From Candidatus Omnitrophota bacterium (GTDB lineage: Bacteria; Omnitrophota; Omnitrophia; Omnitrophales; Aquincolibacteriaceae), in assembly GCA_049324575.1 (NCBI GenBank), contig JBMONI010000002.1:92804-156803 (forward strand): 64,000 nt of DNA, written 5' to 3'. Below the pieces are notes generated by a model, which was not told where the DNA came from, did no database searches, and saw only the letters and a list, made by a program, of their open reading frames with translations. The position numbers and the translations under genes were made by a program. Below, piece after piece: positions 1 to 33,022 of the stretch. The first letter of the stretch is position 1, and each line of letters starts with the position of its first letter.

Positions 1-3000
1 AAAGACCCAATAATACTGATAAGGGTCGGCCCCCTGGCGAGGCCGTTTGATAACATAAGCGTCTTGGAGACCGGATTCAGCGACGTTCCCTTCCAAAAAC
101 GCTTTATAGGCTTCCGATCCATCGGGATCTGCTTCAGCGCTAACGGCATCAGAGGGAGTCCCTTCTTCAGGAGCGGGCGGCGTAGTCACATCCGAAGCGC
201 GAGGCGGCAGATCGATAAGACGAAAAGCCAAGACCACAGTCGAAGCCTCGGACGAAAGGATCTTAATGGCAGTCTCTTCGGCCAGTTGGTAACGAGCGCC
301 CCATCCCGCATCGCTTGAGATCGCGGCTCCAAAAGCTCTCAAGGTCTTTAGTTTTTTAGCGCCGTCGCCGGGCACATCCGGTCGGATCGGCCATTCAAGG
401 GTGACCCTCTTCTTTTCCGCGCTGAATTTCAATTCAAGCGGATCCTCCGAGCGGTACCACTCCTGGGACGTGATCAGACCGACAAGATCACTGATATCAA
501 GATCGGCGGCCTCTCCTTCTTCCCTCACCTCGGCCCGTAATGAAATAACACGGGCCTCGGCGCGAAGGCCATGTTTGGGACGCAACTCCCGGTCCGCATT
601 GTGGAAAAAACTCCTCACGGCCACCGGCATCCCGACGCTCTTGCGCGAATCATACCCCACTTGATTATTCAGCCATCTCCGGAAGGTTTCAAATTGCGGC
701 GGTCTTGTGATCCTCGCCCTTTCAAGAAAACGACGCTCTTTTTTCAACAACTTTTCGAAAAAGCGAATGGCGCCTTGATTTTCCGGGGTCGGATCAGCTT
801 CCTTTGCCATCGCAAGCGCTCTTTCGATCGCGGCTAGCGCGGTTATTTCGGCAACGGCCGTCACCACGGGTTGAGCGACATCACTTCGCAATTCCGCCCG
901 CCCTTGGAGGCGAGGCGTCTCGCCTTGGGCGGACGCACGGCGACGGCGCGAAACTTCGCCGTCCGAAGTCACGGGCCCCATCACCCCTTCCGCATTGGTC
1001 ACGCTGGGTGTATAGCGGTTGAGATAATTCCAAAGGAGCGAGCGCTCATTGAGAAGCGAAACGTCCCAGCCCCGGACCCCGGCAAAGATCCTTTCGAAAT
1101 GCGCGAGCACATTGAAAACAAATTCCTGGCGATGCGGTTTTCTCGCTTCCTGGCTCAAAGCGATATCCACCAGCGGCGCCAAAAGACTTTTCAGGATCGG
1201 GAGTGAGTAAGGAAGGTAAACATTGATGGCGCGATCGGCATTGGCCCGAGTTTCAAAAACGCGGCGGGTTTCGGCGATACGTTGTTCCTTCCACCGGCTG
1301 ATGACCTCCTGGACAGTCTTTTCAGGTCCGACCACCAATGTCGAAAGGATATCGAGCATCAGACGAATATCGTAGCCTGTGAGCAAACCGTTCCCCTGGA
1401 GCAAAAGGTCCGGACTGTTATAGGTGAAAAGACCGTAATGCGGGCCATAAGGTTTCACCGCTTCGACCATGGCATCTGAAAGCGCCTCGTTCCCGCTTAC
1501 GATCAGGACTTCATCCGTTTCCAAACGCATTTTTTGTTGCTTGCCGGTTTCATCGCGAAATGAAATTTCATTTCCTTGCAATATCCCCCGGACTTCCTCG
1601 GGCCCCGCAAATTCGATATCCAGAACCTTGACTTTGAAACCACGCTCGCGAAGCCCCGCTTCAACTCTTTCGGCGATCACATGCTTTCCGGACGACCGCA
1701 TCCCGCCCATCAGCACGACATTCCCTCCTTGACGGGAGCGAATTCGATCGGCGATCTCTGTCACCGCTCCTTCGATCGAGCGATGAAGCGTTTCATCGAC
1801 ATCGGCGATCAGCTCTTGCCGCTCTTTTGCGTTCAATCCGTTCAACTGATGCACCGTCGCCGGCGTTTGATCGAGCGCTTCTTTTTCGATGGTATACGGT
1901 AATCTCCGGGAAGGAAAAAGAAAGACCCTCAGAAGGATCGTCAGAACGCGAACAAGCCGCCCCCACCGATCGGACGGTTTGGACAAAGGTTTTCTGTATT
2001 TTTTGTAAAAAACCGATTGAGGATCCGCCAGTTCCGCATTCACGATCCGGGCCAGGGCCGTGATAAAAGCGGCCTTGCGAAGGTTCGTCTTTTTCGCCCG
2101 GGCGAGTTTGACCACGCTGTAAAAGGCCTTCAGAATGCGGTCTTCCATCATGCCGTTGACCATCACTTCGGGCCACTGTTCATTGACGTTATTCTGCCGC
2201 CATTCGAGGAAAGAGACGATCACGCCGCCCGCATTCGCGATGACATCGGGAACGATCAGGGCTCCTTTTCTTTCGAGGATCTTTTCAGTTTTCCGATTCT
2301 TGATCGGCCCATTCGCCCCTTCGACGATCATTTTCGCCCTGATCAGGGGGGCGATCTTTTCATCCACGGTATTCTCGCCCGCCGCGAGCGTCAGGATGTC
2401 GACATCGCTTGACCAGAATTCCGCCACCGGAACGATCCTGGCTTTTCCAGGATTCGCTTCGGCATAAGCGCGGAGCGCGTGTCCTTTGAATTTCCCGAGG
2501 TTCTCTTCCACGGAATAAAAACGGTTCACAAAATCATTGAGCTCGGGAATATCCAGCCCTTCGGGACCCACACTTGCGATCGCCATCGCTTCCTTGGGAT
2601 CATAGGCTTCCTTGATCGCCATGATCTTTCCCCCGGCCTCGGCGTAGAACCCGGTCGCATATCCCCCGACGTTCCCGCCTCCTTCCACCGCGAACCGAAG
2701 CCCCTTGATCTCGGTCCCGATGCCGAGCATTTTTCCAAAGATTTTCAGAGCTTCGCGCGTAATGAAATAAACGCCGCGTCCGGTAGCCTCGCGCCGGCCT
2801 TTCGAGCCTCCCTTGTCTACCGGTTTCGACGTAACAAAGCCAAGCGGAGATCCCTGAACCATTTTGAGATTTTGATGTGCCGGGTCTTTCAGATAAAAAT
2901 CGAGATAAGGCGTTCCGGTATCGGGGAATGAATTTTCAAGGAATCTGCGGAATCTCGGCGTCATAAAAAGCTCCGCATGTTTGATCTTCAGATACTCATC

Positions 3001-6000
3001 CGCCATCCATCCCATGATCTTTTCGGAGGTCCCGATATCGGGAGCGGGAATATCATCCAGAGGCCCGATCGTATCGGGATTTTTCTCGATAAGCGCCCGG
3101 ACATAGCCCCGGGTCAGCCGCGCAAGTTCGCCTTCGGAAAGAGTGCTCGGATCAATCTCGATGCCGCCTTTTCCACCGCCGTAAGGAAGTCCCGCGATCG
3201 CGTTTTTGACGCTCATCCACATCGAAAGCGCCTGGACATCCTCCACATCCACATGCGGACTGTACCGCACGCCCCCTTTCCCGGCGCCCAGGGCCGCGTT
3301 GTGATAAACGCGGTAGCCTTTGAAGGTCCGTGTCGAGCCATTATCCATCCGCGCCGGAATAGAAACTTCCGTCACGCGGTAAAAAGACAAAAGCCAATCG
3401 AGAAGTTTCCGGTCAAGCCCCATCGCTTTGGCCGCCTGACGGACCTGCTCCTTCGCGTTCCGAAGCGCGATCGCACCCGCCGACGCCTGTCGCACTTCGG
3501 CCCTGCCGGATTTTTTTTCGGTCGAAGCTGGCTCGACCTTGTCAGGGGCGGCCGCGCGAGAAGAGCTCTGAAGCTGGGCCCAAATCTCCGCTTCCCTTTC
3601 ATCCAAAGCCGCAAGGCGCCGGGCAAGATGCACGGCCATGCGGGGGTCGGTTCCGAATTGTTGATTGAGGCGTTCCCTTTCTTCCTGGATCGTTTGAAGC
3701 TCAAGAAGCGCACGATCTTCCGATACGCGCGTCGCCATCGCCGGAGAAAGAACGCCCGCTTTTTCTGCCTGTCGCAGTTCAGCGCGGGGAGGATTTTGAA
3801 ACTGTTTCAGTTTTTCGCTGACCCGCTTATACAGATCAGAATCTTCGTACACCCCTTTGATGAGCAAAAAGATGTTGTTTGCTTGCTTCGCTTTTTCCAG
3901 AAGCGCAGAATCGATGCCTTCCAAGACCTCCACTAAAGCGCTTATGCCGACTTCTCTCATGGCAACGACCACAGGATCTTCCCAAAGTTTTCGTTCCGCC
4001 TTTTCCACAAAATCCTCATCATGGATATTCGCCAGAACAAGCGTGTTGGCTAAATACTGATGGACTGTGAGATTCCCGTTATATTCCAACGCCATGCTAA
4101 TACCGCTTTGAGGGGTCACTCCCATTTTCTGCCAGACGGGATAGACCCTGGCAAAATTGCCTTTCTGAGAGGCCCATTCCTCAGTGCCTTCCTCCATTTT
4201 CAACTCGCCGTAGTAAACCGGGATCTCCAGTCCTGACCCGAAGTCGATCTTTTTGACAGGAAATATCCTCGACTTCGCGAAATCATCCATAAGCTTCCCG
4301 CCCAGGCTTGCGGCTAGAGACGGGATAGGATCGTCCGGTGTCAATGTCCCGCGCCAACTCAGTTCCATATCCTGATAACGCGACACACCGTGTCGTTTGA
4401 ATAACTCCACGATATATCCGTAATTCGCAGGTTTAACCTTTTTATGAAAACTATCCACGCTCACGCGAATAAAGAGATTCTTCAGCGGCTTCTTGCCGAG
4501 TTCGCGCCTGGCCTTCGCAGCTCCGGCGATATCATCAAGCAACCTTTCCGTTCTTGTTTCGTCCGAGAACATGATGCCGCTCGTGATAATCTCGATCTCT
4601 TCGACGTCGGCTTCTCTGATAAATTTCAGAAGGGACGGCATCCGCGTCAGCGGCTCCCCGCCCGTCAGCCCGATCTTTCTGAATCGTTTTTCTTTCAGAT
4701 ACTTAAGGATCCTGTCCACGTCCTTTTCATTGAAAAAAACTTCTTTTCTGCGATCTTGAACGGCATGCATGAAACAGAATGCACATTGGACTGGGCAGAA
4801 ATTTGTCAGCGAAATATAGAGCTCTTCATATTTCAAAAATTGTTCCCGAGAATATGCCCGCGCTTCGGCCCGAGGTTTTGCGCTAATGCCTAATCGCCCA
4901 ACGGCTAACGGCTGAATGATCGCTCGGAGTTCCGCCCGGCCGTTCGGCGAGATCACCGCGTCAGCGCGACTCGCGTATTCCATCGTGCCCGCTTTCGCGG
5001 CCGCAAGTTCCCCCGCCTGCGAGAAGATCGAACGTATGTAGGCCTTGGTGCCCGCCTCGTCCGCTTTCGTGATTCGCGGCGTCAATCTCGCGTACGTGTA
5101 GCCCTTCGATTCAAAATGTTCCCGGAACGGTTCCGCGTGGAATCCGCCCGTCACCACCGCTACCCGGTCCGTCCCCAGTTCCTTGATCCGCTCTTCGACA
5201 CGCCTCATCATGATCGTGTCGCGCTGCTTCGCGAATGAATAAAAAGACATTGCCTTATTGAACAGATCATCGATCTCGGCCAGATTCTCGAACGCCACGT
5301 CTTTGACGCGATTGTCTTTGTTGAGCGCCGAGAATCGGGAGGCGATATTCGAAGGAAGCAGAGGCGTATGGGAGTAGGACGGTATGGCAGTATGGAGTAT
5401 GGAGTATGGAGTATGGGGTTTTGCTGCATCCTGTGTACTGCTTACTGTCATACTGTTATATTCGCTGTCCGTCAATTTCAACTCGAACAGTTTCTCCAGC
5501 AACTGATAATCCGAAAGCAGCGCCACCAGCGCTTTTTCCTCGTCCGTCTTCGACATCCGTTCCAAGAGCTTCCCTTTCAACTGCTCCACTTCCGCCATCA
5601 GCGCCCCCGCCTCAAGCTCCGTCGACAAAAGCCACTGCCCAAGATAACTCTTCACCTGCGGGTATTTCCCATGCGCGAAGTCCCTCGGCAAATATCTCAC
5701 CATGTCCTCCACCAAGGACTCCGATTCCGCGCCCGAAAGCGGGATCTCGTGGATCGGGGTCCCGAGCACTTTCTCGATATAACCGTAAAGGTTCCGTGCG
5801 GAGATCCATTTCCCGTGGATCCGCGATTGCGCTCTGGTCAGATACGGCTTCACCGCGGCGAGGAATGCCGCGCGCTCGCTCTCGAATTTCGCGGCGTCGA
5901 ATTTCTCCGCGAGGTCCGTCGTCACATACAGCCTCACCAGCATCGGCCACTCGGCCTGATAGCCCGGGTCCGCGAGGTCCCAGCCGTAGCGCTTCGCTTT

Positions 6001-6684
6001 CGCGCGCAGGAACTTCGTCCATTCGCCGAAGCTCATCCGCTCCAGGGCGTACGATTCCTGCGCTCGCATGAATCCTTTCAGCGTGTCGTTCAGATAATGA
6101 CCCGAAAGACGCGCGATCGATTCGTCCATCGCCTTCAGGAACTTTCCCGTCGATTCTTTCGCTTTCAACACTTCGATGAACGCTTGCTCGTTCGCTTTGT
6201 AGGCCGCGAGGTCTTCGATGCCGTAAGCCGAAGCCGCCTTTTCATCGAGAAGATAAAGCTCCGCGCCGTGGACAAGCGCTTTTTTCGTGAGGTAGTCGTT
6301 GGCTTTGCGGTTGCGCGTTGGGTCGTTCGGAAAGAAATTCAGGATCGCGGGATCGAGTTTCGCCACCGCGCCTTCCACCAGCACCGTCTTGATCCCGAGC
6401 GTCTTTGTCAGATGATTCAGCAGCGCCTGGATATTTTTCTGCGCTTCGAAATTCCCGTGCGCCGTCTGAATGTGCACGATCGCCGGCCCTTGCGCCGTTT
6501 TCAGATGATCGAGGCGCCCGTGCTTTGTGGGAATGCTGATCGCACCCCAAGAAGCGTGGTCCGAAGCTTGGCGAACACCGATTTCCGTCACTGGAAATCC
6601 TGGCGCACCATAAGAAACATTGGTTGTGATGAAAATAACGGTGGTGAGGGCAGCGACAGCAGCTTTAAAGGGTCGAGCGCGCAT
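1..6684 (-). CDS. Giant multidomain protein, partial (C-terminus beyond window start; at least 2,228 aa in window). Order N to C: signal peptide, TraB/GumN/Tiki-like domain, radical-SAM core, Glu/Leu/Phe/Val dehydrogenase (GDH), P-loop NTPase-like domain, further uncharacterised sequence.
   Basis: Manual reverse-complement translation of every 60-nt line from 6720 down to 1: ATG at 6684..6682 (MRARPFKAAVAALTTVIFITTNVSYGAP...), in-frame TAG 15 codons upstream, then no stop through position 1. Absent from ORF track only because no stop lies inside the window. Motifs read directly: CPVQCAFCF + IGLTGGEPL (radical SAM); LPYGGGKGGIEIDP, DIPAPDIGTS, VEGGGNVGG, EGANGP, IANAGGV (GDH); GGMRSSGKH (Walker-A-like); H..H / VLVEGA / VAVVTGGFHAEP...GYTYARL (TraB/GumN-like). 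Confidence 0.85.
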   Translation of the reverse strand, partial: MRARPFKAAVAALTTVIFITTNVSYGAPGFPVTEIGVRQASDHASWGAISIPTKHGRLDHLKTAQGPAIVHIQTAHGNFEAQKNIQALLNHLTKTLGIKTVLVEGAVAKLDPAILNFFPNDPTRNRKANDYLTKKALVHGAELYLLDEKAASAYGIEDLAAYKANEQAFIEVLKAKESTGKFLKAMDESIARLSGHYLNDTLKGFMRAQESYALERMSFGEWTKFLRAKAKRYGWDLADPGYQAEWPMLVRLYVTTDLAEKFDAAKFESERAAFLAAVKPYLTRAQSRIHGKWISARNLYGYIEKVLGTPIHEIPLSGAESESLVEDMVRYLPRDFAHGKYPQVKSYLGQWLLSTELEAGALMAEVEQLKGKLLERMSKTDEEKALVALLSDYQLLEKLFELKLTDSEYNSMTVSSTQDAAKPHTPYSILHTAIPSYSHTPLLPSNIASRFSALNKDNRVKDVAFENLAEIDDLFNKAMSFYSFAKQRDTIMMRRVEERIKELGTDRVAVVTGGFHAEPFREHFESKGYTYARLTPRITKADEAGTKAYIRSIFSQAGELAAAKAGTMEYASRADAVISPNGRAELRAIIQPLAVGRLGISAKPRAEARAYSREQFLKYEELYISLTNFCPVQCAFCFMHAVQDRRKEVFFNEKDVDRILKYLKEKRFRKIGLTGGEPLTRMPSLLKFIREADVEEIEIITSGIMFSDETRTERLLDDIAGAAKARRELGKKPLKNLFIRVSVDSFHKKVKPANYGYIVELFKRHGVSRYQDMELSWRGTLTPDDPIPSLAASLGGKLMDDFAKSRIFPVKKIDFGSGLEIPVYYGELKMEEGTEEWASQKGNFARVYPVWQKMGVTPQSGISMALEYNGNLTVHQYLANTLVLANIHDEDFVEKAERKLWEDPVVVAMREVGISALVEVLEGIDSALLEKAKQANNIFLLIKGVYEDSDLYKRVSEKLKQFQNPPRAELRQAEKAGVLSPAMATRVSEDRALLELQTIQEERERLNQQFGTDPRMAVHLARRLAALDEREAEIWAQLQSSSRAAAPDKVEPASTEKKSGRAEVRQASAGAIALRNAKEQVRQAAKAMGLDRKLLDWLLSFYRVTEVSIPARMDNGSTRTFKGYRVYHNAALGAGKGGVRYSPHVDVEDVQALSMWMSVKNAIAGLPYGGGKGGIEIDPSTLSEGELARLTRGYVRALIEKNPDTIGPLDDIPAPDIGTSEKIMGWMADEYLKIKHAELFMTPRFRRFLENSFPDTGTPYLDFYLKDPAHQNLKMVQGSPLGFVTSKPVDKGGSKGRREATGRGVYFITREALKIFGKMLGIGTEIKGLRFAVEGGGNVGGYATGFYAEAGGKIMAIKEAYDPKEAMAIASVGPEGLDIPELNDFVNRFYSVEENLGKFKGHALRAYAEANPGKARIVPVAEFWSSDVDILTLAAGENTVDEKIAPLIRAKMIVEGANGPIKNRKTEKILERKGALIVPDVIANAGGVIVSFLEWRQNNVNEQWPEVMVNGMMEDRILKAFYSVVKLARAKKTNLRKAAFITALARIVNAELADPQSVFYKKYRKPLSKPSDRWGRLVRVLTILLRVFLFPSRRLPYTIEKEALDQTPATVHQLNGLNAKERQELIADVDETLHRSIEGAVTEIADRIRSRQGGNVVLMGGMRSSGKHVIAERVEAGLRERGFKVKVLDIEFAGPEEVRGILQGNEISFRDETGKQQKMRLETDEVLIVSGNEALSDAMVEAVKPYGPHYGLFTYNSPDLLLQGNGLLTGYDIRLMLDILSTLVVGPEKTVQEVISRWKEQRIAETRRVFETRANADRAINVYLPYSLPILKSLLAPLVDIALSQEARKPHRQEFVFNVLAHFERIFAGVRGWDVSLLNERSLLWNYLNRYTPSVTNAEGVMGPVTSDGEVSRRRRASAQGETPRLQGRAELRSDVAQPVVTAVAEITALAAIERALAMAKEADPTPENQGAIRFFEKLLKKERRFLERARITRPPQFETFRRWLNNQVGYDSRKSVGMPVAVRSFFHNADRELRPKHGLRAEARVISLRAEVREEGEAADLDISDLVGLITSQEWYRSEDPLELKFSAEKKRVTLEWPIRPDVPGDGAKKLKTLRAFGAAISSDAGWGARYQLAEETAIKILSSEASTVVLAFRLIDLPPRASDVTTPPAPEEGTPSDAVSAEADPDGSEAYKAFLEGNVAESGLQDAYVIKRPRQGADPYQYYWVF
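1330..1745 (-). other. P-loop NTPase-like domain within the giant protein (Walker-A-like GGMRSSGKH)
   Basis: Translated ...RQGGNVVLMGGMRSSGKHVIAERVEAGLRERGFKVKVLDIEF...; family not recognised. Confidence 0.35.
1985..3420 (-). other. Complete Glu/Leu/Phe/Val dehydrogenase (glutamate dehydrogenase-like) domain within the giant protein
   Basis: Translated SIPARMDNGSTRTFKGYRVYHNAALGAGKGGVRYSPHV...LPYGGGKGGIEIDPSTLSEGELARLTRGY...DIPAPDIGTSEKIMGWMADEY...GGSKGRREATGRGVYF...FAVEGGGNVGG...DILTLAAGENTVDEKIAPLIRAKMIVEGANGP...PDVIANAGGVIVSFLEWRQN; catalytic Lys and Rossmann GxGxxG both present. Confidence 0.85.
3990..4830 (-). other. Radical SAM core domain within the giant protein (CxxxCxxC at 4800..4774)
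   Basis: Translated ...YISLTNFCPVQCAFCFMHAVQDRRKEVFFNEKDVDRILKYLKEKRFRKIGLTGGEPLTRMPSLL...; no further Cys cluster, so no SPASM/twitch extension. Confidence 0.75.
5050..6590 (-). other. TraB/GumN/Tiki-like (PF01963-like) domain region of the giant protein
   Basis: N-terminal AIVHIQTAHG...TVLVEGAV and C-terminal RVAVVTGGFHAEPFREHFESKGYTYARL resemble the paired GxxH / E motifs of the TraB/GumN family; assignment from motif memory. Confidence 0.45.
5365..5417. repeat. Imperfect tandem heptanucleotide repeat (GTATGGA)n, three perfect plus about four degenerate units, inside the giant CDS
   Basis: Plus strand 5390-5410 = GTATGGA x3 perfect, flanked by GTATGGG, GTATGGCA, GTAGGACG, GTATGGG; on the coding strand CCATACT repeats encode ...KPHTPYSILHTAIPSYSHTP... 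Confidence 0.85.
6598..6684 (-). other. Predicted N-terminal signal peptide or signal anchor of the giant protein (MRARPFKAAVAALTTVIFITTNVSYGA)
   Basis: Basic n-region (R2,R4,K7) followed by a roughly 20-residue hydrophobic stretch; translated by hand. Confidence 0.55.
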
Positions 6685-7145
6685 ACCTTGTGTAAGAATT
6701 CCCGCGTTACCGATTAAGGTAAAGTTATTCTATTGTCTTACGCTTAACTTTTAAAAAATCTCAGGAAAGACAAAGATGCAAGAAATTTAACCGTCATGAA
6801 TGGCTTTGTCAAGTATAAGCCATACAATTTGTTACGAAAAATCCACCCCTGCCGATTTAGCACTCTTTTTCAGTATAAATCCGGATCGTTTTTTCCCATT
6901 TTCAAGTCACCGGCTAGCCCTTGGTAAAATAGGCCCTAATTCATGCTTGTTCCGATCAAAAACTAGCATTCTTGCCTCTTCCGTACATTTTCTTCGCGTA
7001 AAAAACTCGAAGATCCTCTCACAGACCCAATATCCTAACAGCGAATAGCGGCTTTCCCCGGCTCCGTGACATTTTCCGGAAGTTTAGGTAGAATACCGCT
7101 TCCGTTTTTTTACCGTATCTTTTCACCCAGAAAAGGAGTTTTGCC

Positions 7146-7892
7146 ATGTATAAATTGGTGCTTCTGCGTCACGGCGAAAGCGTTTGGAACAAAGAGAATC
7201 TCTTCACCGGATGGACCGATGTCGACCTTTCCGAAAAAGGCTGCCAGGAAGCGCGCGAGGCCGGACTCACCCTCAAAAAAGAGGGTTTTACTTTTGATTA
7301 TGCCTTTACCTCGGTCCTGAAACGGGCAATCCGGACGCTTTGGCTCACCACCGATGCCATGGACCTCCTGTGGCTTCCGGTCGAAAAATGCTGGCGGTTG
7401 AACGAGCGTCACTACGGAGCTTTGCAGGGACTTAATAAAAGCGACATGGCCGCAAAATACGGCGAAGAGCAAGTCAAGATCTGGCGCCGCAGCTACGATG
7501 TCCGCCCCACCGCTCTCGAAGAGAACGATCCGCGCAATGTTCGCAAAGACCCGCGCTATGCCGGACTGAAACCCGGCGAAGTCCCTCTCACCGAATGCCT
7601 GAAGGACACGGTCGCGCGCGTCATCCCCTGCTGGAAAGAAAGGATCGCCCCCGCGATCCGGTCCGGGAAAAAGATCATCGTCGCCGCGCATGGCAACAGC
7701 CTTCGCGCCATGGTCAAATTTCTCGATAACATTTCCGACGAAGCGATCGTCAGCATGAACATTCCGACCGGTCTTCCGCTTGTCTATGAACTTTCTTCAG
7801 ACCTGAAGCCGATCAAAAATTATTATCTCGGGGACCCCGAAAAAGTAAAAGCCGCCATGGCCGCTGTCGCGAATCAAGGCAAAGCGAAATAA
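7146..7892 (+). CDS. gpmA: 2,3-bisphosphoglycerate-dependent phosphoglycerate mutase
   Basis: [32 protein letters not shown]... classic GpmA N-terminus (RHGES catalytic His); RBS AAAAGGAG 8 nt upstream. Confidence 0.95.
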
Positions 7893-8021
7893 GGCTTCGC
7901 CCGCCTCGAGATATTCCCGCGCGTGCTGTCCCTTTCCAGCTCCAGACCGCCCCGTTCCTCCTCGCCCGTAAAGAGTCTTTTTCCTTAATTAAAGAATAAT
8001 TACAATCTAATCGATATTATT

Positions 8022-8075
8022 TGACAGACAACCATTAGTTGTATTATCTTGTAATCTGCATACGATATATCGAAT
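8022..8075 (+). promoter_or_regulatory. Candidate nrdAB promoter (TTGACA 8022-8027) overlapping two NrdR-box-like palindromes (ACAACCATTAGTTGT 8028-8042; ATACGATATATCGAAT 8060-8075, centres about 32 bp apart)
   Basis: Inverted repeats read in the AT-rich leader upstream of nrdA; spacing and ACA..wAtATaTw..TGT pattern match the published NrdR box consensus as I remember it. Confidence 0.5.
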
Positions 8076-8160
8076 ATGAATTTATACGATTTCAAAATTG
8101 CCAGATGTTTTCAGTTCAGTTTCCGTCCTTCTTTCCGCAAACAGTCTTAAGGAGATTCTC

Positions 8161-11100
8161 ATGACCGAACTATCGACTCATCTCGCCTCGATCGCCGTCA
8201 AAAAAAGGAACGGCCAGGAAGTCCCATTCTTCGCCGTCCGGATCCAGCGCGCCATCGCCAGCGCTTTCAAAGCGCATTGCGGACTGCCGCAGGAATCCGA
8301 CCTTCCCGAAGATCTTGCCCGCTCCGTGGAAAAGATCACCACCCAAGTCGTGGCCGGGTGCGAGACCGAAGCCGTCGACCGCAAGGTCCTTTTCATCGAA
8401 GACATCCAGGACACCGTCATCCGGACACTCGCTGCATCCGGCTTTCCGGAAATCGCCCAGCGCTATAAAGATTACCGTCATCTTCAGCAGACCGAACGCC
8501 TCGAGCACCAGCGCATCACGGTCAGGAAACGGGACGGGCGGACTGTATCGTTCAAACCCGAAAAGATCACACGCGCGATCGCAAAAGCCTTCGCTGCGGA
8601 ACTCGGAGAGGATCTTTTTCCCGAGACCGCGATCGAAGCCGCCTTGAAAGTTTCCGATGCCGTCATTCAAAAGGTCCGCGCCTTGAGCGCCGATGCTTTC
8701 ACGGTCGACATCGAGAAGATCCAGGATCTCGCGGAACTCGCTCTGATGGAGCAGGGATTCCACGATATCGCGCAGCGCTACATCCGTTATCGCGAAGACC
8801 GGCGCATGGCGCGCATCAGCGGGCCCTCCTCCCTCGCGGCCGAGACCTCGCAGCCTTCGCTTCGCCTCAAAAAAGCGAACGGAACTGTGCTCCCGCTCGA
8901 CCTTGCGCTGCTTCGCCGGATCATTCTCGACGCCTGTTTCGGCTTTGAGGACGAAGTCTCGCCTGAGCTCATTTTGAAGGCAGCCCTCCGTAATTGTGTC
9001 GATACTATGCCGGAGGAAAAGCTGATCGACGCAGTGGCCCTCGCCGTGCGACCGCTCATCGAAAAAGACACGGCCTATTCGTATATCGCCGGGCGCGTTC
9101 TGCTCAAAAAACTTTATGAAGAGGTTCACGGCGGTCCGGCCTCCAAAGAGCTCATCCGCGGCGTCTATCCCGAGCTTTTCCGGAAGGCTGTGGTGCGCGG
9201 GATCGAAGCCGAGCGACTTTCGCCCGCCATGCAGGATTACAACCTGCAGAAGCTCGGCAAAGCCCTCCGGATGGAACGCGACGAAAGCTTTCAGTTCATG
9301 GGCCTGCAGATCCTCTATGACCGGTATTTCCTCCATCACGACGGCGTCCGTTTTGAAACCCCGCAGATCTTTTGGATGCGGATCGCGATGGGCCTGGCCC
9401 TGAACGAAGGAAAGGCGAAGGATGACCGGGCGATCGAATTTTACGAAGTCCTTTCGACCTTTCGGTTCGTCAGCTCAACGCCGACGCTTTTCAACGCCGG
9501 GACCCTGCATCCCCAGCTTTCCTCCTGTTTCCTCACCACCGTCGCCGACGACCTCGACCATATCTTCAAAAGCATCAAGGACAACGCCATGCTCTCGAAG
9601 TGGAGCGGCGGCCTCGGGAACGACTGGACTTCGGTCCGGGCCATGGGCGCAAGAATCAAGGGCACGAACGGAAAAAGCCAGGGGATCATCCCGTTCCTCA
9701 AGGTCGCCAACGATACCGCGGTCGCCGTCAATCAGGGCGGAAAACGCCAGGGTGCGGTTTGCGCTTACCTGGAATGTTGGCATCTCGACTTCGAGGAATT
9801 CCTCGAACTGCGAAAAAACACCGGCGATGACCGGCGGCGCACACACGATATGCACACGGCCAGCTGGATCCCGGACCTTTTCATGAAACGGGTCCTGGCC
9901 AACGGCGACTGGACCCTTTTCAGCCCGAACGAAGTCCCGGACCTCCATGATCTTACGGGAACCGCCTTCGAGGAGCGGTACCGGGGATACGAATCCGCGG
10001 CACTCGCGGGAAAACTCCGCCAATCCAAGCGCATGCCGGCCGTTGATCTCTGGCGGAAAATTCTCACCATGCTTTTCGAAACCGGCCATCCCTGGGTCAC
10101 TTTCAAGGACCCCTCGAATATCCGCTCGCCGCAGGACCATCAAGGCGTCGTGCACAGCTCAAACCTCTGCACGGAGATCCTTCTCAATACGAACCGCGAT
10201 GAGACCGCGGTCTGCAACCTCGGTTCGCTCAACCTGGCCGCCCACATGACTTCCGGCGGCTTCGATCGAACGCTTTTGGCCGACACGGTCGGTATCGCCA
10301 TGCGCATGCTCGACAATGTCATCGACCTCAACTATTACCCGACCCCTGAGGCGAGAAACTCGAACCTCAAGCACCGGCCGGTGGGCCTCGGCCTGATGGG
10401 TTTCCAGGATTGTCTGTACCGGATGGGTGTCAGTTACGCTTCCGACGAGGCCGTCCGCTTCGCCGATGAAAGCATGGAATTCATCTCTTATCATGCTCTC
10501 CTGGCCTCGACCGAGCTTGCGCGCGAGCGAGGCCCTTACGCGTCCTTCAAAGGTTCGAAATGGGACCGCGGGATCCTGCCGTTCGATACGCTGGCGCTCC
10601 TCGAAAAAGAACGCGGAGGCTATCTCGAGATCGACCGGTCACAAACCCTGGATTGGACCCCGGTCCGTGAGGCGATCCGCCAGCACGGCATGCGCAATTG
10701 CAATACCATGGCGATCGCTCCGACCGCCACGATCGCCCAGATCGTCGGGATTACGCAGTCGATCGAGCCTCTCTATAAACATCTTTTCGCCAAAAGCAAC
10801 CTCTCGGGCGAATTCACAGCGATCAATCCTTATCTCGTGGCCGAGCTCAAGGCCCTCGGGATCTGGGATACGGGAATGATCGATGACCTGAAATATTTCG
10901 ACGGGTGCTTGGCCGAGATCGCAAGGATCCCGCAAAGCGTCAAGAACCGTTTTCCGACAGCGTTCGAGATCGATTACGAGTGGATCATCGAATGCGCGAG
11001 CAGGCGTCAGAAATGGATCGATATGGGGCAGTCCGTGAATCTGTATCTCGCGGAAGCCAGCGGCAAGAAACTGCATAGCATGTACACCCTGGCTTGGCAG

Positions 11101-11271
11101 AAAGGGTTGAAAACGACCTACTACCTGCGCTCCCTGGGCGCGACACGGATCGAGAAATCCACGCTGGACGCGAAAAAATACAAGAACACGATCGGTAAAA
11201 AAAAATTCACCCCGGAACAGACGGCCCAGTGCCGCCTCGATAACCCTGACAGTTGCGAAGCCTGTCAGTAA
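8161..11271 (+). CDS. nrdA: Class I ribonucleoside-diphosphate reductase alpha subunit with N-terminal ATP-cone(s)
   Basis: ATG at 8161 preceded by AAGGAG (the ORF-track start at 8098 is an upstream extension). ATP-cone VKKRNGQEVPF..., active-site region NLCTEILLNTNRDETAVCNLGSLNLAAH. Confidence 0.93.
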   Translation: MTELSTHLASIAVKKRNGQEVPFFAVRIQRAIASAFKAHCGLPQESDLPEDLARSVEKITTQVVAGCETEAVDRKVLFIEDIQDTVIRTLAASGFPEIAQRYKDYRHLQQTERLEHQRITVRKRDGRTVSFKPEKITRAIAKAFAAELGEDLFPETAIEAALKVSDAVIQKVRALSADAFTVDIEKIQDLAELALMEQGFHDIAQRYIRYREDRRMARISGPSSLAAETSQPSLRLKKANGTVLPLDLALLRRIILDACFGFEDEVSPELILKAALRNCVDTMPEEKLIDAVALAVRPLIEKDTAYSYIAGRVLLKKLYEEVHGGPASKELIRGVYPELFRKAVVRGIEAERLSPAMQDYNLQKLGKALRMERDESFQFMGLQILYDRYFLHHDGVRFETPQIFWMRIAMGLALNEGKAKDDRAIEFYEVLSTFRFVSSTPTLFNAGTLHPQLSSCFLTTVADDLDHIFKSIKDNAMLSKWSGGLGNDWTSVRAMGARIKGTNGKSQGIIPFLKVANDTAVAVNQGGKRQGAVCAYLECWHLDFEEFLELRKNTGDDRRRTHDMHTASWIPDLFMKRVLANGDWTLFSPNEVPDLHDLTGTAFEERYRGYESAALAGKLRQSKRMPAVDLWRKILTMLFETGHPWVTFKDPSNIRSPQDHQGVVHSSNLCTEILLNTNRDETAVCNLGSLNLAAHMTSGGFDRTLLADTVGIAMRMLDNVIDLNYYPTPEARNSNLKHRPVGLGLMGFQDCLYRMGVSYASDEAVRFADESMEFISYHALLASTELARERGPYASFKGSKWDRGILPFDTLALLEKERGGYLEIDRSQTLDWTPVREAIRQHGMRNCNTMAIAPTATIAQIVGITQSIEPLYKHLFAKSNLSGEFTAINPYLVAELKALGIWDTGMIDDLKYFDGCLAEIARIPQSVKNRFPTAFEIDYEWIIECASRRQKWIDMGQSVNLYLAEASGKKLHSMYTLAWQKGLKTTYYLRSLGATRIEKSTLDAKKYKNTIGKKKFTPEQTAQCRLDNPDSCEACQ

Positions 11272-11451
11272 AAGAATTTGAAATGAAAAACAGAAATCCG
11301 AACACGGAAAATTCGAAACAACCGCGAAACTCTAAATTCGAAAGGGTCCAGCCCGGACGTTTTTCGGGCCTTGCATTTTCCGATTTCACGTTTGTTTCGA
11401 ATCTCTTATTTATAATTTCGGATTTGCCAACATCAAAATAAGGAGGCTGTG

Positions 11452-12507
11452 ATGAATAAAAAAGACTACATCATTCCGATGACCAAGGAGCGGATCCGCA
11501 TCGAGGACAAGCGGATCATCAATAACAAGGCCGTCGACGTAAACCAGCTGATCCCGATCAAATATGAATGGGCATGGCAGTATTATCTCGACGGATGCGC
11601 GAACCACTGGATGCCGCAGGAGATCTCCATGCAACGTGACATCGAGCAGTGGAAAGACCCGAAAGCCTTCTCTGACGATGAGCGTCTCATGTTCAAGCGG
11701 AACCTCGGATTCTTCACGACCTCCGACACGCTTGTCGCGAACAATATCATCCTGGCGATCTACCGCTACGTCACAGCCCCCGAGATCCGCCAGTATTTCC
11801 TCCGCCAAGCCTTCGAAGAGGCTGTTCACACCCACGCTTACCAGTACATCCCGCAATCACTTGCCTTTGACGAAGGCGAGCTCTACAACATGTACCGCGA
11901 GATCCCGTCGATGCATGCCAAAGCAGAGTTCGAAGCCGAACTCACCGCTGATATCCTGAAACCGGACTTCGAAACCGACTCTTTTGAAGGCCGCCAGCGG
12001 CTTTTGAGCAATTTAATCGGTTATTACGGAGTCACCGAAGGGATCTTTTTCTACGCGGCCTTTGTCATGCTGCTTTCCTTCGGCCGGCACAACAAATTGC
12101 CCGGCATGTGCGAGCAGGTCCAGTACATTCTCCGCGACGAAAGCATGCACCTCAATTTCGGACTGCATTTGATCAACGAGATCATCCGGGAGGAGCCGGC
12201 CATCTGGACCCCGGCTATGCGGGAAGAGACCGTACACAAATTCAAGAAAGGCGTGGAACTCGAGGTCGAATATGCCAAAGACTGTCTGCCGAACGGGCTC
12301 ATGGGCCTGACCCTGGACCTGATCCGCGAATACATCCAGCATATCGCGGACCGCCGGCTCGAAAGGCTCGGGCTTCCGGTCCAGTTCCCGAAGGCCGGGA
12401 ACCCTTTCCCCTGGATGAGCGAGATCATCGACCTGAGAAAAGAAAAGAATTTCTTCGAAACGCGCGTGACGGAATATCAGACCGGCGGAACGCTTGACTG
12501 GAGCTGA
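11452..12507 (+). CDS. nrdB: Class I ribonucleotide reductase beta subunit (ferritin-like, di-iron/tyrosyl radical)
   Basis: MNKKDYIIPMTKERIRIEDKRIINNKAVDVNQLIPIKYEWAWQYYLDGCANHWMPQEI...; RBS AGGAGG at 11441-11446; the GTG at 11449 is a 1-codon extension. Confidence 0.93.
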   Translation: MNKKDYIIPMTKERIRIEDKRIINNKAVDVNQLIPIKYEWAWQYYLDGCANHWMPQEISMQRDIEQWKDPKAFSDDERLMFKRNLGFFTTSDTLVANNIILAIYRYVTAPEIRQYFLRQAFEEAVHTHAYQYIPQSLAFDEGELYNMYREIPSMHAKAEFEAELTADILKPDFETDSFEGRQRLLSNLIGYYGVTEGIFFYAAFVMLLSFGRHNKLPGMCEQVQYILRDESMHLNFGLHLINEIIREEPAIWTPAMREETVHKFKKGVELEVEYAKDCLPNGLMGLTLDLIREYIQHIADRRLERLGLPVQFPKAGNPFPWMSEIIDLRKEKNFFETRVTEYQTGGTLDWS

Positions 12508-32600: not shown

Positions 32601-33022
32601 GCATCCGGTCCAAGCTCGGTCTGCACTCCTTGTGGAAGCCGGGGAATGATCTTACTCAGATATTCGAGTGTCCGGCTTCTCGCCCAATAAAGGTCCGTTC
32701 CGTCCTTGAAGATCACATAGACATAGGAAAAGCCAAAATCCGAGAATCCGCGGACCGCTTTGACATGGGGCGCGCCGAGCATCGCGGTAACGATCGGATA
32801 AGTGACTTGGTCTTCAATGAGGTCAGGGCTGCGGTCCCACTTGGAGTAAATGATGACTTGGGTATCCGAAAGATCAGGAATCGCATCCAGCGGGATGTTC
32901 TGGATCGACCATACCGAAGCCACGACAGCGACCGCCGTGAGAACAAAAACAAGAAGCTTATTATGGGCCGAAAATTCGATGATCCGTTCAACCCAACCGC
33001 CCTGCCTCAATGGCGCGTCCAT
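29660..33022 (-). CDS. cusA: CusA/CzcA-family heavy-metal efflux RND transporter
   Basis: 1,120-aa 12-TM RND permease. Confidence 0.9.
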   Translation of the reverse strand: MDAPLRQGGWVERIIEFSAHNKLLVFVLTAVAVVASVWSIQNIPLDAIPDLSDTQVIIYSKWDRSPDLIEDQVTYPIVTAMLGAPHVKAVRGFSDFGFSYVYVIFKDGTDLYWARSRTLEYLSKIIPRLPQGVQTELGPDATGVGWVFQYVLVDKTGKHSLQELRSFQDWYLRYYLQSVPGVAEVASLGGFVKQYQITLDPNKLLAYDIPITQVLAAVRSGNQETGGRLLEFSGAEYMVRGRGYARSVQDLENIVVTTDPKGTPVLIKHLGTVAIGPDIRRGLADLDGEGDVVSGTVVMRSGENALNVIRRVKARIEELKPSFPAGVELVVTYDRSELILHAIDTLKHQLIEEMIIVSFVILLFLWHFPSAIVPIVTIPISVLLSFILLHRMELTSNIMSLSGIAISIGVLVDGAIVEVENAYKRLEQWIAGGRQGDFHAIRLQALKEVGPAVFFSLLVIAVSFLPVFTLMDQEGRLFRPLAWAKNLAMVMAALLAVTLDPAMRMLFARMDPIRLKLPFFPKKIETGLSKAVTGIAVGTYYPEEKHPVSRVLFGIYEPVCRWVLKHRKTTILAALLLVLSTIPVYFKLGSEFMPPLWEENLLYMPTTLPGISVTEAQRLLQKQDKILKAFPEVERVFGKAGRMESSTDPAPFSMIETVILLKPEREWTKKERWYSRWVPEMFQWPLERIWPQHLSREELVQKLDQALQIPGTTNAWTLPIKNRIDMLSTGVRTPIGIKVLGADIKKIEEIGTHLEMILKDIPGTRSIYAERVAGGYFLDFELNREAMARYGLSVEDVQSVITSAIGGENITTTVEGRERYPVNVRYSREFRDDLEKLKRVLVPTRAEGTGSAVKGPMERQIPIAQLAEIKKVPGPAMIRNENGLLAGYVYVDMAGRDIGSYVAEAKKIVTRELKLPQGYSLIWSGQYENMIRVKERLKIVVPLTLFLICLLLYINTKSAVKTGIVLLAVPFSLVGAVWFLWLLDYHISIAVWVGMIALMGLDAETGVFMLLFLDLAYDDAVRNKKMRTQRDLEEAIMHGAVKRVRPKMMTVMATFMGLLPIMWATGAGSDAMKRIAAPMIGGLATSFILELLVYPVIYFIWKWRFEMKEGKASWISNISP

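Follow-up and report, generated by a model that had tools for sequence, protein, structure and literature searches.

At the start of the window, as we call the whole 64,000-nt stretch that was analysed, lies a giant gene on the minus strand. Translation confirmed what the initial annotation had proposed: an uninterrupted frame of 2,228 codons runs from the ATG at 6684 to position 1, where it is still open, and the plus-strand ORFs overlapping 1..6684 are antisense shadows, such as an Arg-rich 449-aa ORF at 5368..6717. The nearest in-frame stop upstream of ATG 6684 is 16 codons away, and this start is credible since the alignments of homologs begin at residues 1-10 of the giant ORF. The gene is chromosomal, in a neighborhood of housekeeping genes (gpmA, nrdAB). 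The features of the locus, all on the minus strand, are:

1..6684, minus strand: giant ORF, at least 2,228 codons, C-terminus beyond the window start
6607..6684, minus strand: signal-peptide-like N-terminus, aa 1-26 (MRARPFK, 14-15 hydrophobic residues, then SYG/AP)
5062..6540, minus strand: conserved N-domain, aa 49-541, with a TIKI/TraB/ChaN/erythromycin-esterase-like alpha/beta core
6457..6459, minus strand: H76 in HIQTAHG, candidate catalytic His, invariant in alignments A1 and A3
6373..6375, minus strand: E104 in VLVEG, candidate catalytic Glu, invariant
5221..5223, minus strand: R488, invariant, matching the basic residue that TIKI proteases conserve (RRSP R4001)
5137..5139, minus strand: H516 in TGGFH, second candidate catalytic His (RRSP H4030), invariant
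4924..4938, minus strand: separator motif 1, RAELR, aa 583-587, within the N-domain's disordered tail
4858..4872, minus strand: separator motif 2, RAEAR, aa 605-609, paired in tandem with motif 1 (P0001 and P0003 have such a pair too)
3787..4857, minus strand: radical SAM module, aa 610-966 (357 aa), of complete-enzyme size
4774-4797, minus strand: radical SAM cluster motif CxxxCxxC (CPVQCAFC), aa 630-637
3772..3786, minus strand: separator motif 3, RAELR, aa 967-971, from the motif scan
3505..3771, minus strand: spacer, aa 972-1060 (89 aa), helical/coiled-coil-like, with only a sub-threshold APG6_N coiled-coil match and no domain
3490..3504, minus strand: separator motif 4, RAEVR, aa 1061-1065, from the motif scan
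2026..3489, minus strand: glutamate/ELFV dehydrogenase (GDH), aa 1066-1553, from Pfam and PDB alignment
901..2025, minus strand: orphan region, aa 1554-1928, sharing a module with GDH and carrying a Walker-A-like element
1681-1707, minus strand: Walker-A-like GGMRSSGKH, aa 1660-1668, non-canonical (GxxxxGKH)
886..900, minus strand: separator motif 5, RAELR, aa 1929-1933, from the motif scan
565..885, minus strand: orphan module, aa 1934-2040 (107 aa), with no Pfam or homolog match
523..564, minus strand: separator motifs 6 and 7, RAEAR (aa 2041-2045) and RAEVR (aa 2050-2054), from the motif scan
1..522, minus strand: orphan module, aa 2055-2228 and on past the window, with no homologs

We examined the reality of this reading frame. 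An independent Logan assembly (L003, SRR32167788) is 100% identical across window 6454..10326, which reproduces the 5′ end of the giant ORF. It is barely credible that an assembly chimera or decayed pseudogene mimics a single ORF here: besides that match, the 2,228 codons are free of stops, composition is even from end to end, and the same three-part architecture recurs in thousands of independent assemblies. On the other side, the gene is cut by the window edge and the source contig for a coverage check was not found. The C-terminal remainder was found neither by peptide and exact-DNA scans of genome_contigs nor by an exact-DNA scan of metagenome_contigs; a contig look-up via gpmA returned a 3.9-kb Logan contig alone, without the missing remainder, and aa 1560-2228 used as homology-search query gave no matches.

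The N-terminus is signal-like, of the Sec type, as the leader noted in the initial annotation had suggested. The AF2 model has a helix at 5-23 and then a disordered stretch at 22-46, and a hydrophobic N-terminal window is found in 129 of 162 family members (net charge +2.6 before it, -0.6 after). The giant ORF has no further TM-like segment except one buried GDH strand. On aa 1-580 no Pfam model scored above threshold; the N-domain had no match in PDB by phmmer and profile searches, and no significant Foldseek match. A fold search favors a TraB/Tiki-like assignment, with a parallel beta-sheet core as in Ere, ChaN, TraB and RRSP, and sub-threshold profile matches were seen to Cofac_haem_bdg (E 0.0027, 4/15 members), DUF5682 (E 0.01, 2/15 members) and Erythro_esteras (E 0.036, 1/15 members). 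Membership of the TIKI/TraB/ChaN/erythromycin-esterase superfamily is supported by these weak but convergent matches, and the earlier TraB/GumN/Tiki-like label is borne out at that level. A helical insert of ~340 aa (aa ~160-500) divides the core in two.

The candidate catalytic residues H76, E104, R488 and H516 are invariant over 15-27 aligned members that are just ~20-48% identical to the query. The H76-to-E104 spacing of 28 equals that of Bcr135 (H85/E113) and RRSP (H3902/E3930), while R488 and H516 are 28 apart vs 29 in RRSP. Mutagenesis found the corresponding RRSP His/Glu/Arg/His residues to be needed for endopeptidase activity (PMC6254334). The Glu that opens the 2His/2Glu set, E3900 in RRSP, lies two residues ahead of the first His; the giant ORF has Thr74 there instead, beside the invariant Q73. 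In RRSP the requirement for this Glu in cells is partial. Superfamily members that are not proteases include the haem binder ChaN, the esterases of the Ere group, and PMT, which has no catalytic motif. We regard the N-domain as hydrolase-like, a putative peptidase or esterase.

The N-domain family comprises 6,675 clusters (4,007 at E<=1e-10); the domain invariably stands at the N-terminus, the longest protein having 7,823 aa, and where a source is named it is mostly Omnitrophota or another PVC-type bacterium. The part conserved among relatives is the first ~556 residues only, shared by 46/46 homologs, and the Pfam domains downstream differ: kinases, sugar enzymes, histidine kinases and glyoxylate-cycle enzymes are among the relatives' cargo. 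Complete members end in a conserved ~300-aa C-terminal cap that finishes in [S/A]-A, the last residue being Ala. HMMs of the cap gave no match to the giant ORF, and aa 2055-2228 and beyond are not the cap; absence of the cap from the window implies that the giant gene is truncated at its edge. The cap is modeled as alpha/beta at low confidence (pLDDT 59), and its profile search of the big database returned one fragment. Autotransporters end in a ~250-300-aa C-terminal beta-barrel with a terminal aromatic residue; a type V barrel was rejected for the cap, given the predicted alpha/beta fold and the Ala end. No description of this giant-protein family was found in the searchable open-access papers and bioRxiv preprints, none of which joins Omnitrophota with polyproteins or has the motif strings in a relevant context, in keeping with the earlier view that the architecture lies outside described families.

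Two of the downstream modules are recognizable enzymes, both named in the initial annotation. The radical SAM core is confirmed by PF04055 at aa 624-723 (48-49 bits vs a cut-off of 29.5). Only the N-terminal ~100 residues of the module match, weakly, to MoaA, Tes, viperin and others, and no functional subfamily among these or the SPASM maturases was indicated, the NCBIfam equivalogs scoring far under cut-off (e.g., MoaA 41 vs 325). A defense-system reading was dropped, as PADLOC yields just generic viperin-like radical SAM similarity. The glutamate dehydrogenase looks catalytically intact from its sequence: both Pfam domains are present (ELFV_dehydrog_N at aa 1103-1231, 163 bits; ELFV_dehydrog at aa 1292-1552, 166 bits), together with the catalytic Lys motif GGGKGG (aa 1169-1174) and the dinucleotide-binding GGGNVGG (aa 1335-1341), and there is a ~43-aa insertion near aa 1232-1276. 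It aligns to residues 32-428 of PDB 4xgi (E 6e-83), the top PDB matches all being GDHs, and scores 307 bits against NCBIfam GdhA_Arch, under the equivalog cut-off of 750. The orphan region that follows (aa 1554-1928) has nothing in PDB and no homologs. The Walker-A-like element reported there is present but non-canonical, with His where the GxxxxGK[S/T] pattern has Ser/Thr (GMRSSGKH), and aa ~1640-1700 gave sub-threshold matches only, to APS_kinase (E=0.015), MeaB and ParA.

The modules are separated by a pentapeptide, R-[S/A]-E-x-R, with seven copies in the giant ORF. Across 47 proteins we counted 140 copies vs 2.6 expected (maximum 7 over 200 shuffles), and 0-6 copies of near-miss control peptides. 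An independent set of 134 proteins has 662 vs 9.9 expected, with a single copy inside aa 1-520; the median position of a protein's first copy is aa 621. The other ORFs of the window have no copy in 18,210 aa, and in locus L001 the other ORFs have one in 5,278 aa vs six in the giant ORF of that locus. Chance origin is ruled out by the shuffles, the near-miss controls and this absence from other genes, and a DNA-level repeat or recombination site by the unconserved flanks and the varied synonymous codons of the seven window copies.

The motif is real at the peptide level and marks module boundaries, as several sequence comparisons agree. It interrupted no Pfam envelope in the nine homologs scanned, and the segments that it delimits are protein-sized (GNAT 188 aa, methyltransferase 230 aa, a whole hybrid histidine kinase 1,158 aa). 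For both radical SAM and GDH, a separator sits directly upstream of the point where the native enzyme would begin; counting from the motif gives the native numbering of GDH and of a MoaA-like radical SAM enzyme within ~3 residues, module residue 12 of the latter pairing with MoaA residue 15. When members are compared with one another, 37% of the shared blocks begin no more than 15 aa downstream of a motif and 30% stop no more than 15 aa upstream of one, where the null is ~8% (maximum 13%). P0002 is P0001 plus one duplicated 92-aa motif-to-motif unit. Tandem motifs are spaced 9-22 aa, and pLDDT is <50 over aa 542-584, the region of motif 1. Each protein favors its own variant (P0016 RSELR, P0014 RSEAR, P0012 RSEMR, the giant ORF RAExR), as expected if whatever reads the motif co-evolved with it. 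Roughly 25-33% of the family, chiefly the most distant members, have no R[SA]ExR: among the first 46 homologs, ranked by N-domain, it is present in 29/32 of the closest and 1/14 of the most distant. A de novo gapped-pattern count found no convincing substitute separator in the motif-less members; P0099 may carry T.QN.H.E as an alternative pattern. Three organizing features escaped the first reading: that R-A-E-x-R separators recur along the chain, that the protein belongs to a family, and that a C-terminal cap is to be expected past the window edge.

The initial annotation had taken radical SAM, GDH and P-loop to act together as a self-contained redox or modification machine. The domains are indeed real and look catalytically competent, and GDH and the P-loop-like region, with no separator motif between them, share a module and could cooperate. 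Such a dedicated fusion is nonetheless very improbable. The rSAM-GDH combination occurs in none of the 46 homologs, the radical SAM module itself is absent from all 46, and GDH is found in only two, with other partners: P0019 (ICL, malate synthase and PEPCK), a motif-less member, and P0020 (response regulator). P0006 has a different radical SAM domain without GDH. In the giant ORF two separators and the 89-aa spacer intervene. Since the downstream parts differ in every relative, radical SAM next to GDH does not represent conserved coupling.

We favor, at roughly even chances, a processed polyprotein in which R[SA]ExR would be the cutting site and the N-domain the candidate protease. The chain begins with the Sec-type signal-like peptide and the ~500-residue hydrolase-like domain, behind which comes a genome-specific string of protein-sized modules, each bounded by R-[S/A]-E-x-R; in the giant ORF these are radical SAM, a short spacer, GDH with the P-loop-like orphan stretch, and two or more further orphans. 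The pentapeptide would serve as a site-specific processing site at which the chain is cut into separate enzymes, and the radical SAM and GDH modules would be independent passengers, not coupled. Comparison of the window with loci L001 and L002 revealed no conserved neighbor, be it a protease, a secretion gene or any other partner, which would make the TIKI-like domain the most economical protease candidate, in cis or in trans. Several observations weigh against a processed polyprotein: Thr74 stands where RRSP has the first Glu of its set, some superfamily members (ChaN, Ere, PMT) are not proteases, no separator splits GDH from the P-loop-like region, and this reading does not account for a Sec-type signal ahead of an Fe-S radical SAM enzyme and an NAD(P) GDH, both cofactor-dependent and of cytoplasmic type. 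Given the motif-less members, cleavage at R[SA]ExR cannot be the family-universal mode.

Those same members would suit an unprocessed scaffold, an intact membrane-tethered or secreted 'beads-on-a-string' multi-enzyme chain in which the motif is an uncut docking or recognition peptide, bound perhaps by the N-domain, the cap or a chaperone, or is punctuation for co-translational folding. An alternating R-x-E-x-R would equally suit a beta-strand binding epitope, ChaN-like superfamily members bind rather than cleave, and a conserved N-domain with a conserved cap suggests two ends cooperating on one chain. However, the invariance of the His/Glu/Arg/His set at such low identity favors an enzyme over a mere binder, the motif falls exactly at the enzymes' native N-termini and in disordered linkers, like processing sites, and closely spaced tandem motifs are awkward as docking sites and common at polyprotein junctions; we hold the scaffold to be possible but doubtful. 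The chain may instead be processed in trans, by a separate protease whose gene lies in another part of the genome (e.g., subtilisin/kexin-like, Arg-specific), leaving the N-domain another job, such as esterase, anchor or processor of something else. All the evidence for the motif as a boundary or processing signal serves this reading too, as do the missing first Glu and the C39 and S8 peptidases reported as part of giant Omnitrophota proteins or alongside them (bioRxiv 10.1101/2023.11.21.568195), but the lack of a conserved protease gene beside the giant gene in the three loci, and the tracking of the motif with N-domain closeness (which phylogeny could explain too), make it unlikely.

The polyprotein reading can be carried further. 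A TIKI-like endopeptidase exported by Sec might cut its own tail, several thousand residues long, at R-[S/A]-E-x-R, releasing genome-specific, otherwise cytoplasmic enzymes (radical SAM and GDH in the giant ORF) outside the producer's cytoplasm: in an enlarged periplasm, in vesicles, or in a host or prey cell with its metabolism rewired by the bacterium. This would be a MARTX-like delivery of 'metabolic effectors' by thousands of lineages of bacteria, most of them carrying the Omnitrophota label; we think it unlikely and offer it as speculation.

If the pentapeptide is a processing site, bacteria of a major uncultivated phylum would make ordinary enzymes in the manner of RNA viruses, from a giant precursor whose own head acts as the protease, and thousands of metagenomic 'giant genes' would need re-annotation as strings of separate proteins. 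R[SA]ExR is a concrete, testable candidate for cleavage points that a giant-gene survey called unknown, and a simple rule for dividing giant proteins before their structures are predicted or their functions annotated. With a signal peptide ahead of them, the Fe-S and NAD(P) enzymes raise the question of where they work, a point that matters for the predatory or parasitic life proposed for Omnitrophota. Should the chain stay uncut, the 6,675-cluster domain family with invariant catalytic residues, the 50- to 60-fold enriched separator and the Ala-terminated cap appear undescribed in open-access papers and bioRxiv.

Several known systems resemble parts of this one. The N-domain shares with TIKI/TraB/PrgY/GumN, ChaN and erythromycin esterase an alpha/beta core whose parallel strands bear the catalytic residues at their C-terminal ends, the His-Glu pair 28 apart, the conserved Arg and the GxxH histidine. 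Members of that superfamily are mostly extracytoplasmic, with signal peptides. The N-domain is unlike them in its helical insertion, in matching no curated model over threshold, in its lost first Glu, and in being always fused to thousands of cargo residues.

Omnitrophota, source of the giant Archaeovorin- and Dockerin-type proteins, also figures among the source labels of the present family. Those proteins and the 'gigantic proteins' noted by the Aravind lab are likewise very long ORFs that mix enzymes, histidine kinase/receiver modules and peptidases, and proteolytic processing of them has been suspected. The Archaeovorin and Dockerin types exceed 30,000 aa and carry C39/S8 peptidase, dockerin and SecA-like domains and many TM regions, and the survey's authors called their cleavage points unknown (bioRxiv 10.1101/2023.11.21.568195). 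Open-access and bioRxiv giant-protein papers were found to make no mention of the TIKI-like N-domain, the R[SA]ExR separator or the Ala-terminated cap. Proteolytic release has reportedly been proposed for polyvalent proteins as well. These belong to phages and conjugative elements and have 2-15 unrelated enzymatic domains in variable combinations (Iyer et al., 2017; PMC5512222). They lie on mobile elements and are dominated by anti-defense and DNA- or RNA-targeting domains, whereas the giant gene is chromosomal with metabolic and signaling cargo, and its family's head, cap and separator differ from theirs.

MARTX toxins are giant secreted proteins with variable, strain-specific enzyme modules between conserved ends; the giant family likewise has variable modules, a conserved head and cap, and recurrent linker motifs. 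MARTX toxins contain an internal cysteine protease domain, and their modules are freed by this in-built protease in the inter-module linkers, for which cutting at R[SA]ExR would be the counterpart. Neither that domain nor the glycine-rich RTX-type repeats found at both MARTX ends had a Pfam match in the 2,228 aa present. The candidate protease is here the N-terminal TIKI-like domain, with a strict pentapeptide separator and an N-terminal Sec-like signal; the cargo is housekeeping-type metabolic and signaling enzymes vs the recognized toxins of MARTX, and the labels are Omnitrophota and other PVC-type bacteria, whereas MARTX occurs in Vibrio-type pathogens. The MARTX effector RRSP is a TIKI-superfamily site-specific endopeptidase (PMC6254334, PMC6315884), with the same His/Glu/Arg/His arrangement as the N-domain of the giant ORF. 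Viral polyproteins (picornavirus, flavivirus, nidovirus) also hold their protease within the chain, where the giant family has the N-domain as candidate and cleavage is presumed. The giant gene is unlike them in its bacterial chromosome, housekeeping neighborhood and cellular-enzyme cargo, and like them in its recurrent junction peptide upstream of native N-termini and in the proposed plan of one ORF for many mature proteins.

We found an uninterrupted frame of 2,228 stop-free codons on the minus strand of the window, running from ATG 6684 to position 1 and open past the window start, as the initial annotation had claimed. An in-frame stop lies 16 codons upstream of the ATG, and GC content is even along the ORF (0.50-0.58). 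Window 6454..10326 is matched at 100% identity by an independent Logan contig (L003, SRR32167788), so the 5′ end of the giant ORF is reproduced. The plus-strand ORFs across the region, such as an Arg-rich 449-aa ORF at 5368..6717, are antisense shadows, as first proposed. The context just upstream, on the opposite strand, is ordinary housekeeping:

Window 7146-7892, strand opposite to the giant ORF: gpmA (Pfam His_Phos_1 match)
Window 8098-12507, plus strand: nrdA-like and nrdB-like genes of a class I ribonucleotide reductase (reading of translations)

The nrdA-like product (1,057 aa) looks from its sequence to have three ATP-cone-like N-terminal repeats. Further along the window, an AcrB-type RND efflux pump (29660-33022, minus strand, 1,120 aa, ACR_tran 700 bits) is ordinary.

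Pfam matches along the giant ORF product are as follows:

aa 624-723: Radical_SAM (Pfam), with CPVQCAFC at aa 630-637
aa 1103-1231: ELFV_dehydrog_N (Pfam)
aa 1292-1552: ELFV_dehydrog (Pfam)
aa 1660-1668: P-loop-like GGMRSSGKH (sub-threshold Pfam matches only)

The domain calls of the initial annotation were largely right: radical SAM (rSAM) and ELFV/glutamate dehydrogenase (GDH) score above the Pfam threshold, and the P-loop falls below it. The GDH part aligns nearly end to end with solved GDHs (4xgi residues 32-428, E 6e-83), keeps GGGKGG and GGGNVGG, has a ~43-aa insertion, and scores under every NCBIfam equivalog cut-off. The rSAM module resembles known families over its first ~100 residues only, and family-model and structure-sequence comparisons assigned it to no subfamily. 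PDB and homology searches detected no relatives of aa 1560-2228.

Searching with the entire translation retrieved 46 proteins of 1,284-3,887 aa, each covering only ~25% of the query. Their named sources are mostly Omnitrophota, with Auribacterota, Elusimicrobiota and unclassified bacteria also represented. Local BLAST placed the common part at aa ~1-556, N-terminal in every match and here termed the head. The downstream cargo differs per homolog: phosphoglucomutase with UGPase, cupins, glycosyltransferases, hybrid histidine kinases, WD40/AAA, GNAT, 2-hydroxyacid dehydrogenase, hexokinase, UDP-glucose dehydrogenase, protein kinases, isocitrate lyase with malate synthase, PEPCK and GDH, and others. 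Judged by sequence comparison, it is the head that is conserved and not the enzymes. Exhaustive HMMER scanning with the head alone gave 6,675 clusters (50% identity level), 4,007 of them at E<=1e-10; the head is always at the N-terminus, in proteins of up to 7,823 aa. In homolog P0019 (10001-20713 of L002, another giant-gene locus), which lacks the separator motif described next, the head is followed by isocitrate lyase, malate synthase, PEPCK and GDH, a near-complete glyoxylate/gluconeogenesis set within one ORF.

The modules are separated by a pentapeptide, R-[S/A]-E-x-R. All seven copies of RAE[LVA]R in the giant ORF (aa 583, 605, 967, 1061, 1929, 2041 and 2050) fall between recognisable units. 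Elsewhere in the 64-kb window the remaining reading frames contain 0-2 copies each, and the 18,210 aa encoded by the other non-overlapping ORFs contain none. Across the query and its 46 homologs there are 140 copies of R[SA]E[LVMIAF]R, where residue shuffles predict 2.6 (maximum 7), and control motifs (reversed, or Lys-, Asp- or Gln-substituted) occur 0-6 times. An independent set of 134 family representatives holds 662 copies against 9.9 expected, only one of them within the first 520 residues; the median position of the first copy is aa 621, and copies are a median of 258 aa apart. The motif flanks are not conserved. The seven copies in the window use differing synonymous codons, so selection acts on the motif peptide. 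Proteins have preferred variants: RSELR in P0016, RSEAR in P0014, RSEMR in P0012 and RAExR in the giant ORF. Between roughly a quarter and a third of members lack the motif: it is absent from 16 of the first 46 homologs, mainly the most distant, and 39 of the 134 representatives have fewer than two copies. A search of motif-less members for a substitute separator found none. One motif-less member, P0099 (6,474 aa), has recurring gapped T..N.H, QN.H and Q..H.E patterns, 5-7 copies each, which might be an alternative separator. A second giant ORF in the window (37062-44330, minus strand, 2,422 aa) also lacks R[SA]ExR and is unrelated to the head-domain family; a GH94 supersandwich and catalytic domain (cyclic beta-1,2-glucan synthase/phosphorylase type) occupy its C-terminal ~750 residues, and no Pfam match at E<=1e-3 falls in its first ~1,660.

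The motif marks module boundaries. It interrupts no Pfam envelope in the nine homologs scanned, and the segments between copies are protein-sized: a GNAT segment has 188 aa, a methyltransferase segment 230 aa and a protein kinase segment 313 aa, UDP-glucose dehydrogenase falls within a single segment, and another of 1,158 aa holds a complete PAS-GAF-PAS-HisKA-HATPase-receiver kinase. In the giant ORF aa 610-966, the 357 aa between motifs, form one unit the size of an rSAM enzyme. Residues counted from the motif end agree with native numbering to within about three for both the rSAM module (12 vs 15 in MoaA) and the GDH module (11-14 vs 9-11 in several GDHs). Of the homology blocks between different members, 37% start no more than 15 residues downstream of a motif and 30% end no more than 15 residues upstream of one, against ~8% (maximum 13%) for randomly placed blocks. 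The cluster representatives P0001 and P0002 differ by exact duplication of one 92-aa unit, from RSEVR to the next RSEVR, which is either a recent module duplication or an assembly variant. The first motif falls in the modeled disordered tail of the head and is often doubled, with copies 9-22 residues apart. A conserved tandem pair, its motifs 13-22 residues apart around a short hydrophobic spacer (IIQPLAVG, IVSGVAG or IVEGVAG), lies directly after the head:

Window 4858-4938, minus strand: giant ORF
aa 616-633: homolog P0001
aa 590-607: homolog P0003

Such a pair could be a primary autocleavage or pseudo-substrate element.

Complete members end in a conserved region, the cap, present once per protein and C-terminal, with a median of 301 residues from last motif to C-terminus in the 134 representatives. 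Some 75% of members terminate in Ala (34/46 and 96/134 proteins not cut by contig ends), against an overall Ala frequency of 9%. The tail consensus is L(-15), hydrophobic(-11), A(-9), hydrophobic(-5), [A/S](-2), A(-1); tails such as LIAKSA, LIARSA, YIGTMA and AFASAA follow an amphipathic helix in complete homologs (e.g., P0004, P0052, P0058). A non-polar AA or SA C-terminus recalls the recognition tails of ssrA/ClpXP and Tsp/Prc, and the ends of HlyA-type secretion signals. Jackhmmer and hhalign joined the two largest cap clusters at 100% probability and a third to these at 98% (E ~1e-14 to 1e-16); an 18-member C-terminal cluster showed no demonstrable relation to the others by these methods. 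The AlphaFold model of the cap is poor (pLDDT 59), with an alpha/beta look and only generic Rossmann-like fold matches. Cap HMMs found no match in the available 2,228 residues of the giant ORF; a family-typical C-terminus would put a further ~300 residues or more beyond the window. Four minimal members (P0064, P0070, P0080 and P0089; 1,183-1,363 aa) have a head, a few hundred residues with only 1-2 motifs, and an Ala-terminated tail, which suggests that head and cap are the core into which cargo modules were inserted.

The head was modeled with AlphaFold from 27 sequences, confidently (pLDDT 81, pTM 0.73). The model has an N-terminal helix (aa 5-23) and then a disordered stretch, an alpha/beta core (aa ~56-160 and 505-540) with a large helical insertion, and a disordered tail from aa 542. 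Foldseek gave no significant match, its matches being dominated by the helical insert, and PDB sequence and profile searches were empty. When 15 diverse family members were scanned singly against Pfam, sub-threshold matches to ChaN ("Tiki superfamily"; 4/15, best E 0.0027), erythromycin esterase (1/15) and DUF5682 (2/15) converged on one superfamily. The invariant residues H76, E104, R488, G513, G514 and H516 map in the model to C-terminal ends of core strands. RRSP, a MARTX effector, requires H3902, E3930, H4030 and the conserved basic R4001 for endopeptidase activity, and Bcr135 uses H85/E113 (PMC6254334). His-to-Glu spacing is 28 in all three, and Arg-to-His spacing is 28 in the head vs 29 in RRSP; Thr74 stands where RRSP has the first Glu of its 2His/2Glu set. 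On sequence and model we place the head, as a divergent member, in the TIKI/TraB/ChaN/Ere superfamily, with its active site preserved, which supports the TraB/GumN/Tiki-like call of the initial annotation at superfamily level. We infer that the head is a peptidase.

The most economical reading is a processed polyprotein, in which the conserved head would carry a variable string of independent enzymes and probably cut it at R-[S/A]-E-x-R. Rival explanations are an uncleaved scaffold, with the boundary peptide as a docking motif, and cleavage by a trans-acting protease; no partner gene is conserved beside the giant gene across the window (gpmA, nrdAB) and loci L001 (tRNA synthetase, scpAB) and L002 (trp genes, dnaK). 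An artefact was also weighed; the giant gene is real. The coupled redox or modification machine of the initial annotation does join two enzymes present in this ORF, but it is least compatible with the free variation of cargo: the rSAM module is shared by none of the 46 homologs and GDH by only two. That reading should be replaced.

The topology of such a polyprotein is puzzling. By sequence its N-terminus resembles a Sec signal, in which a positively charged n-region precedes an h-region of 14-15 residues, followed by small residues. The pattern recurs in 129 of 162 family members (net charge +2.6 ahead of the hydrophobic stretch and -0.6 behind it), and no further membrane-like segment occurs in the 2,228 aa of the query. 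An exported head would be consistent with the usual extracytoplasmic location of TIKI-type domains. Behind a Sec signal, neither a [4Fe-4S]/SAM enzyme nor an NAD(P) dehydrogenase would be expected to function in a periplasm; the modules may be released before export, work in an unusual compartment, or be delivered to another cell.

Earlier work has covered giant multidomain Omnitrophota proteins in general (10.1101/2023.11.21.568195; PMC12419801), with no mention of head, motif or cap, and the first of these sources states that their cleavage points are unknown. The open-access literature, to which our search was confined, held nothing relevant on Omnitrophota polyproteins or motif strings and no description of the head/motif/cap family. 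The closest functional analogues are MARTX toxins, viral polyproteins and polyvalent proteins encoded by mobile elements. In MARTX toxins, variable effector modules lie between conserved ends and autoprocessing is built in; their effector RRSP is a TIKI-type site-specific endopeptidase (PMC6254334). The giant ORF product is not a MARTX member: its 2,228 aa contain neither CPD nor RTX repeats by Pfam, and it differs in its protease candidate, its N-terminal signal and its non-toxin cargo. The head-domain family is very large, undescribed in the searchable literature and may belong among the autoprocessing multi-module proteins.
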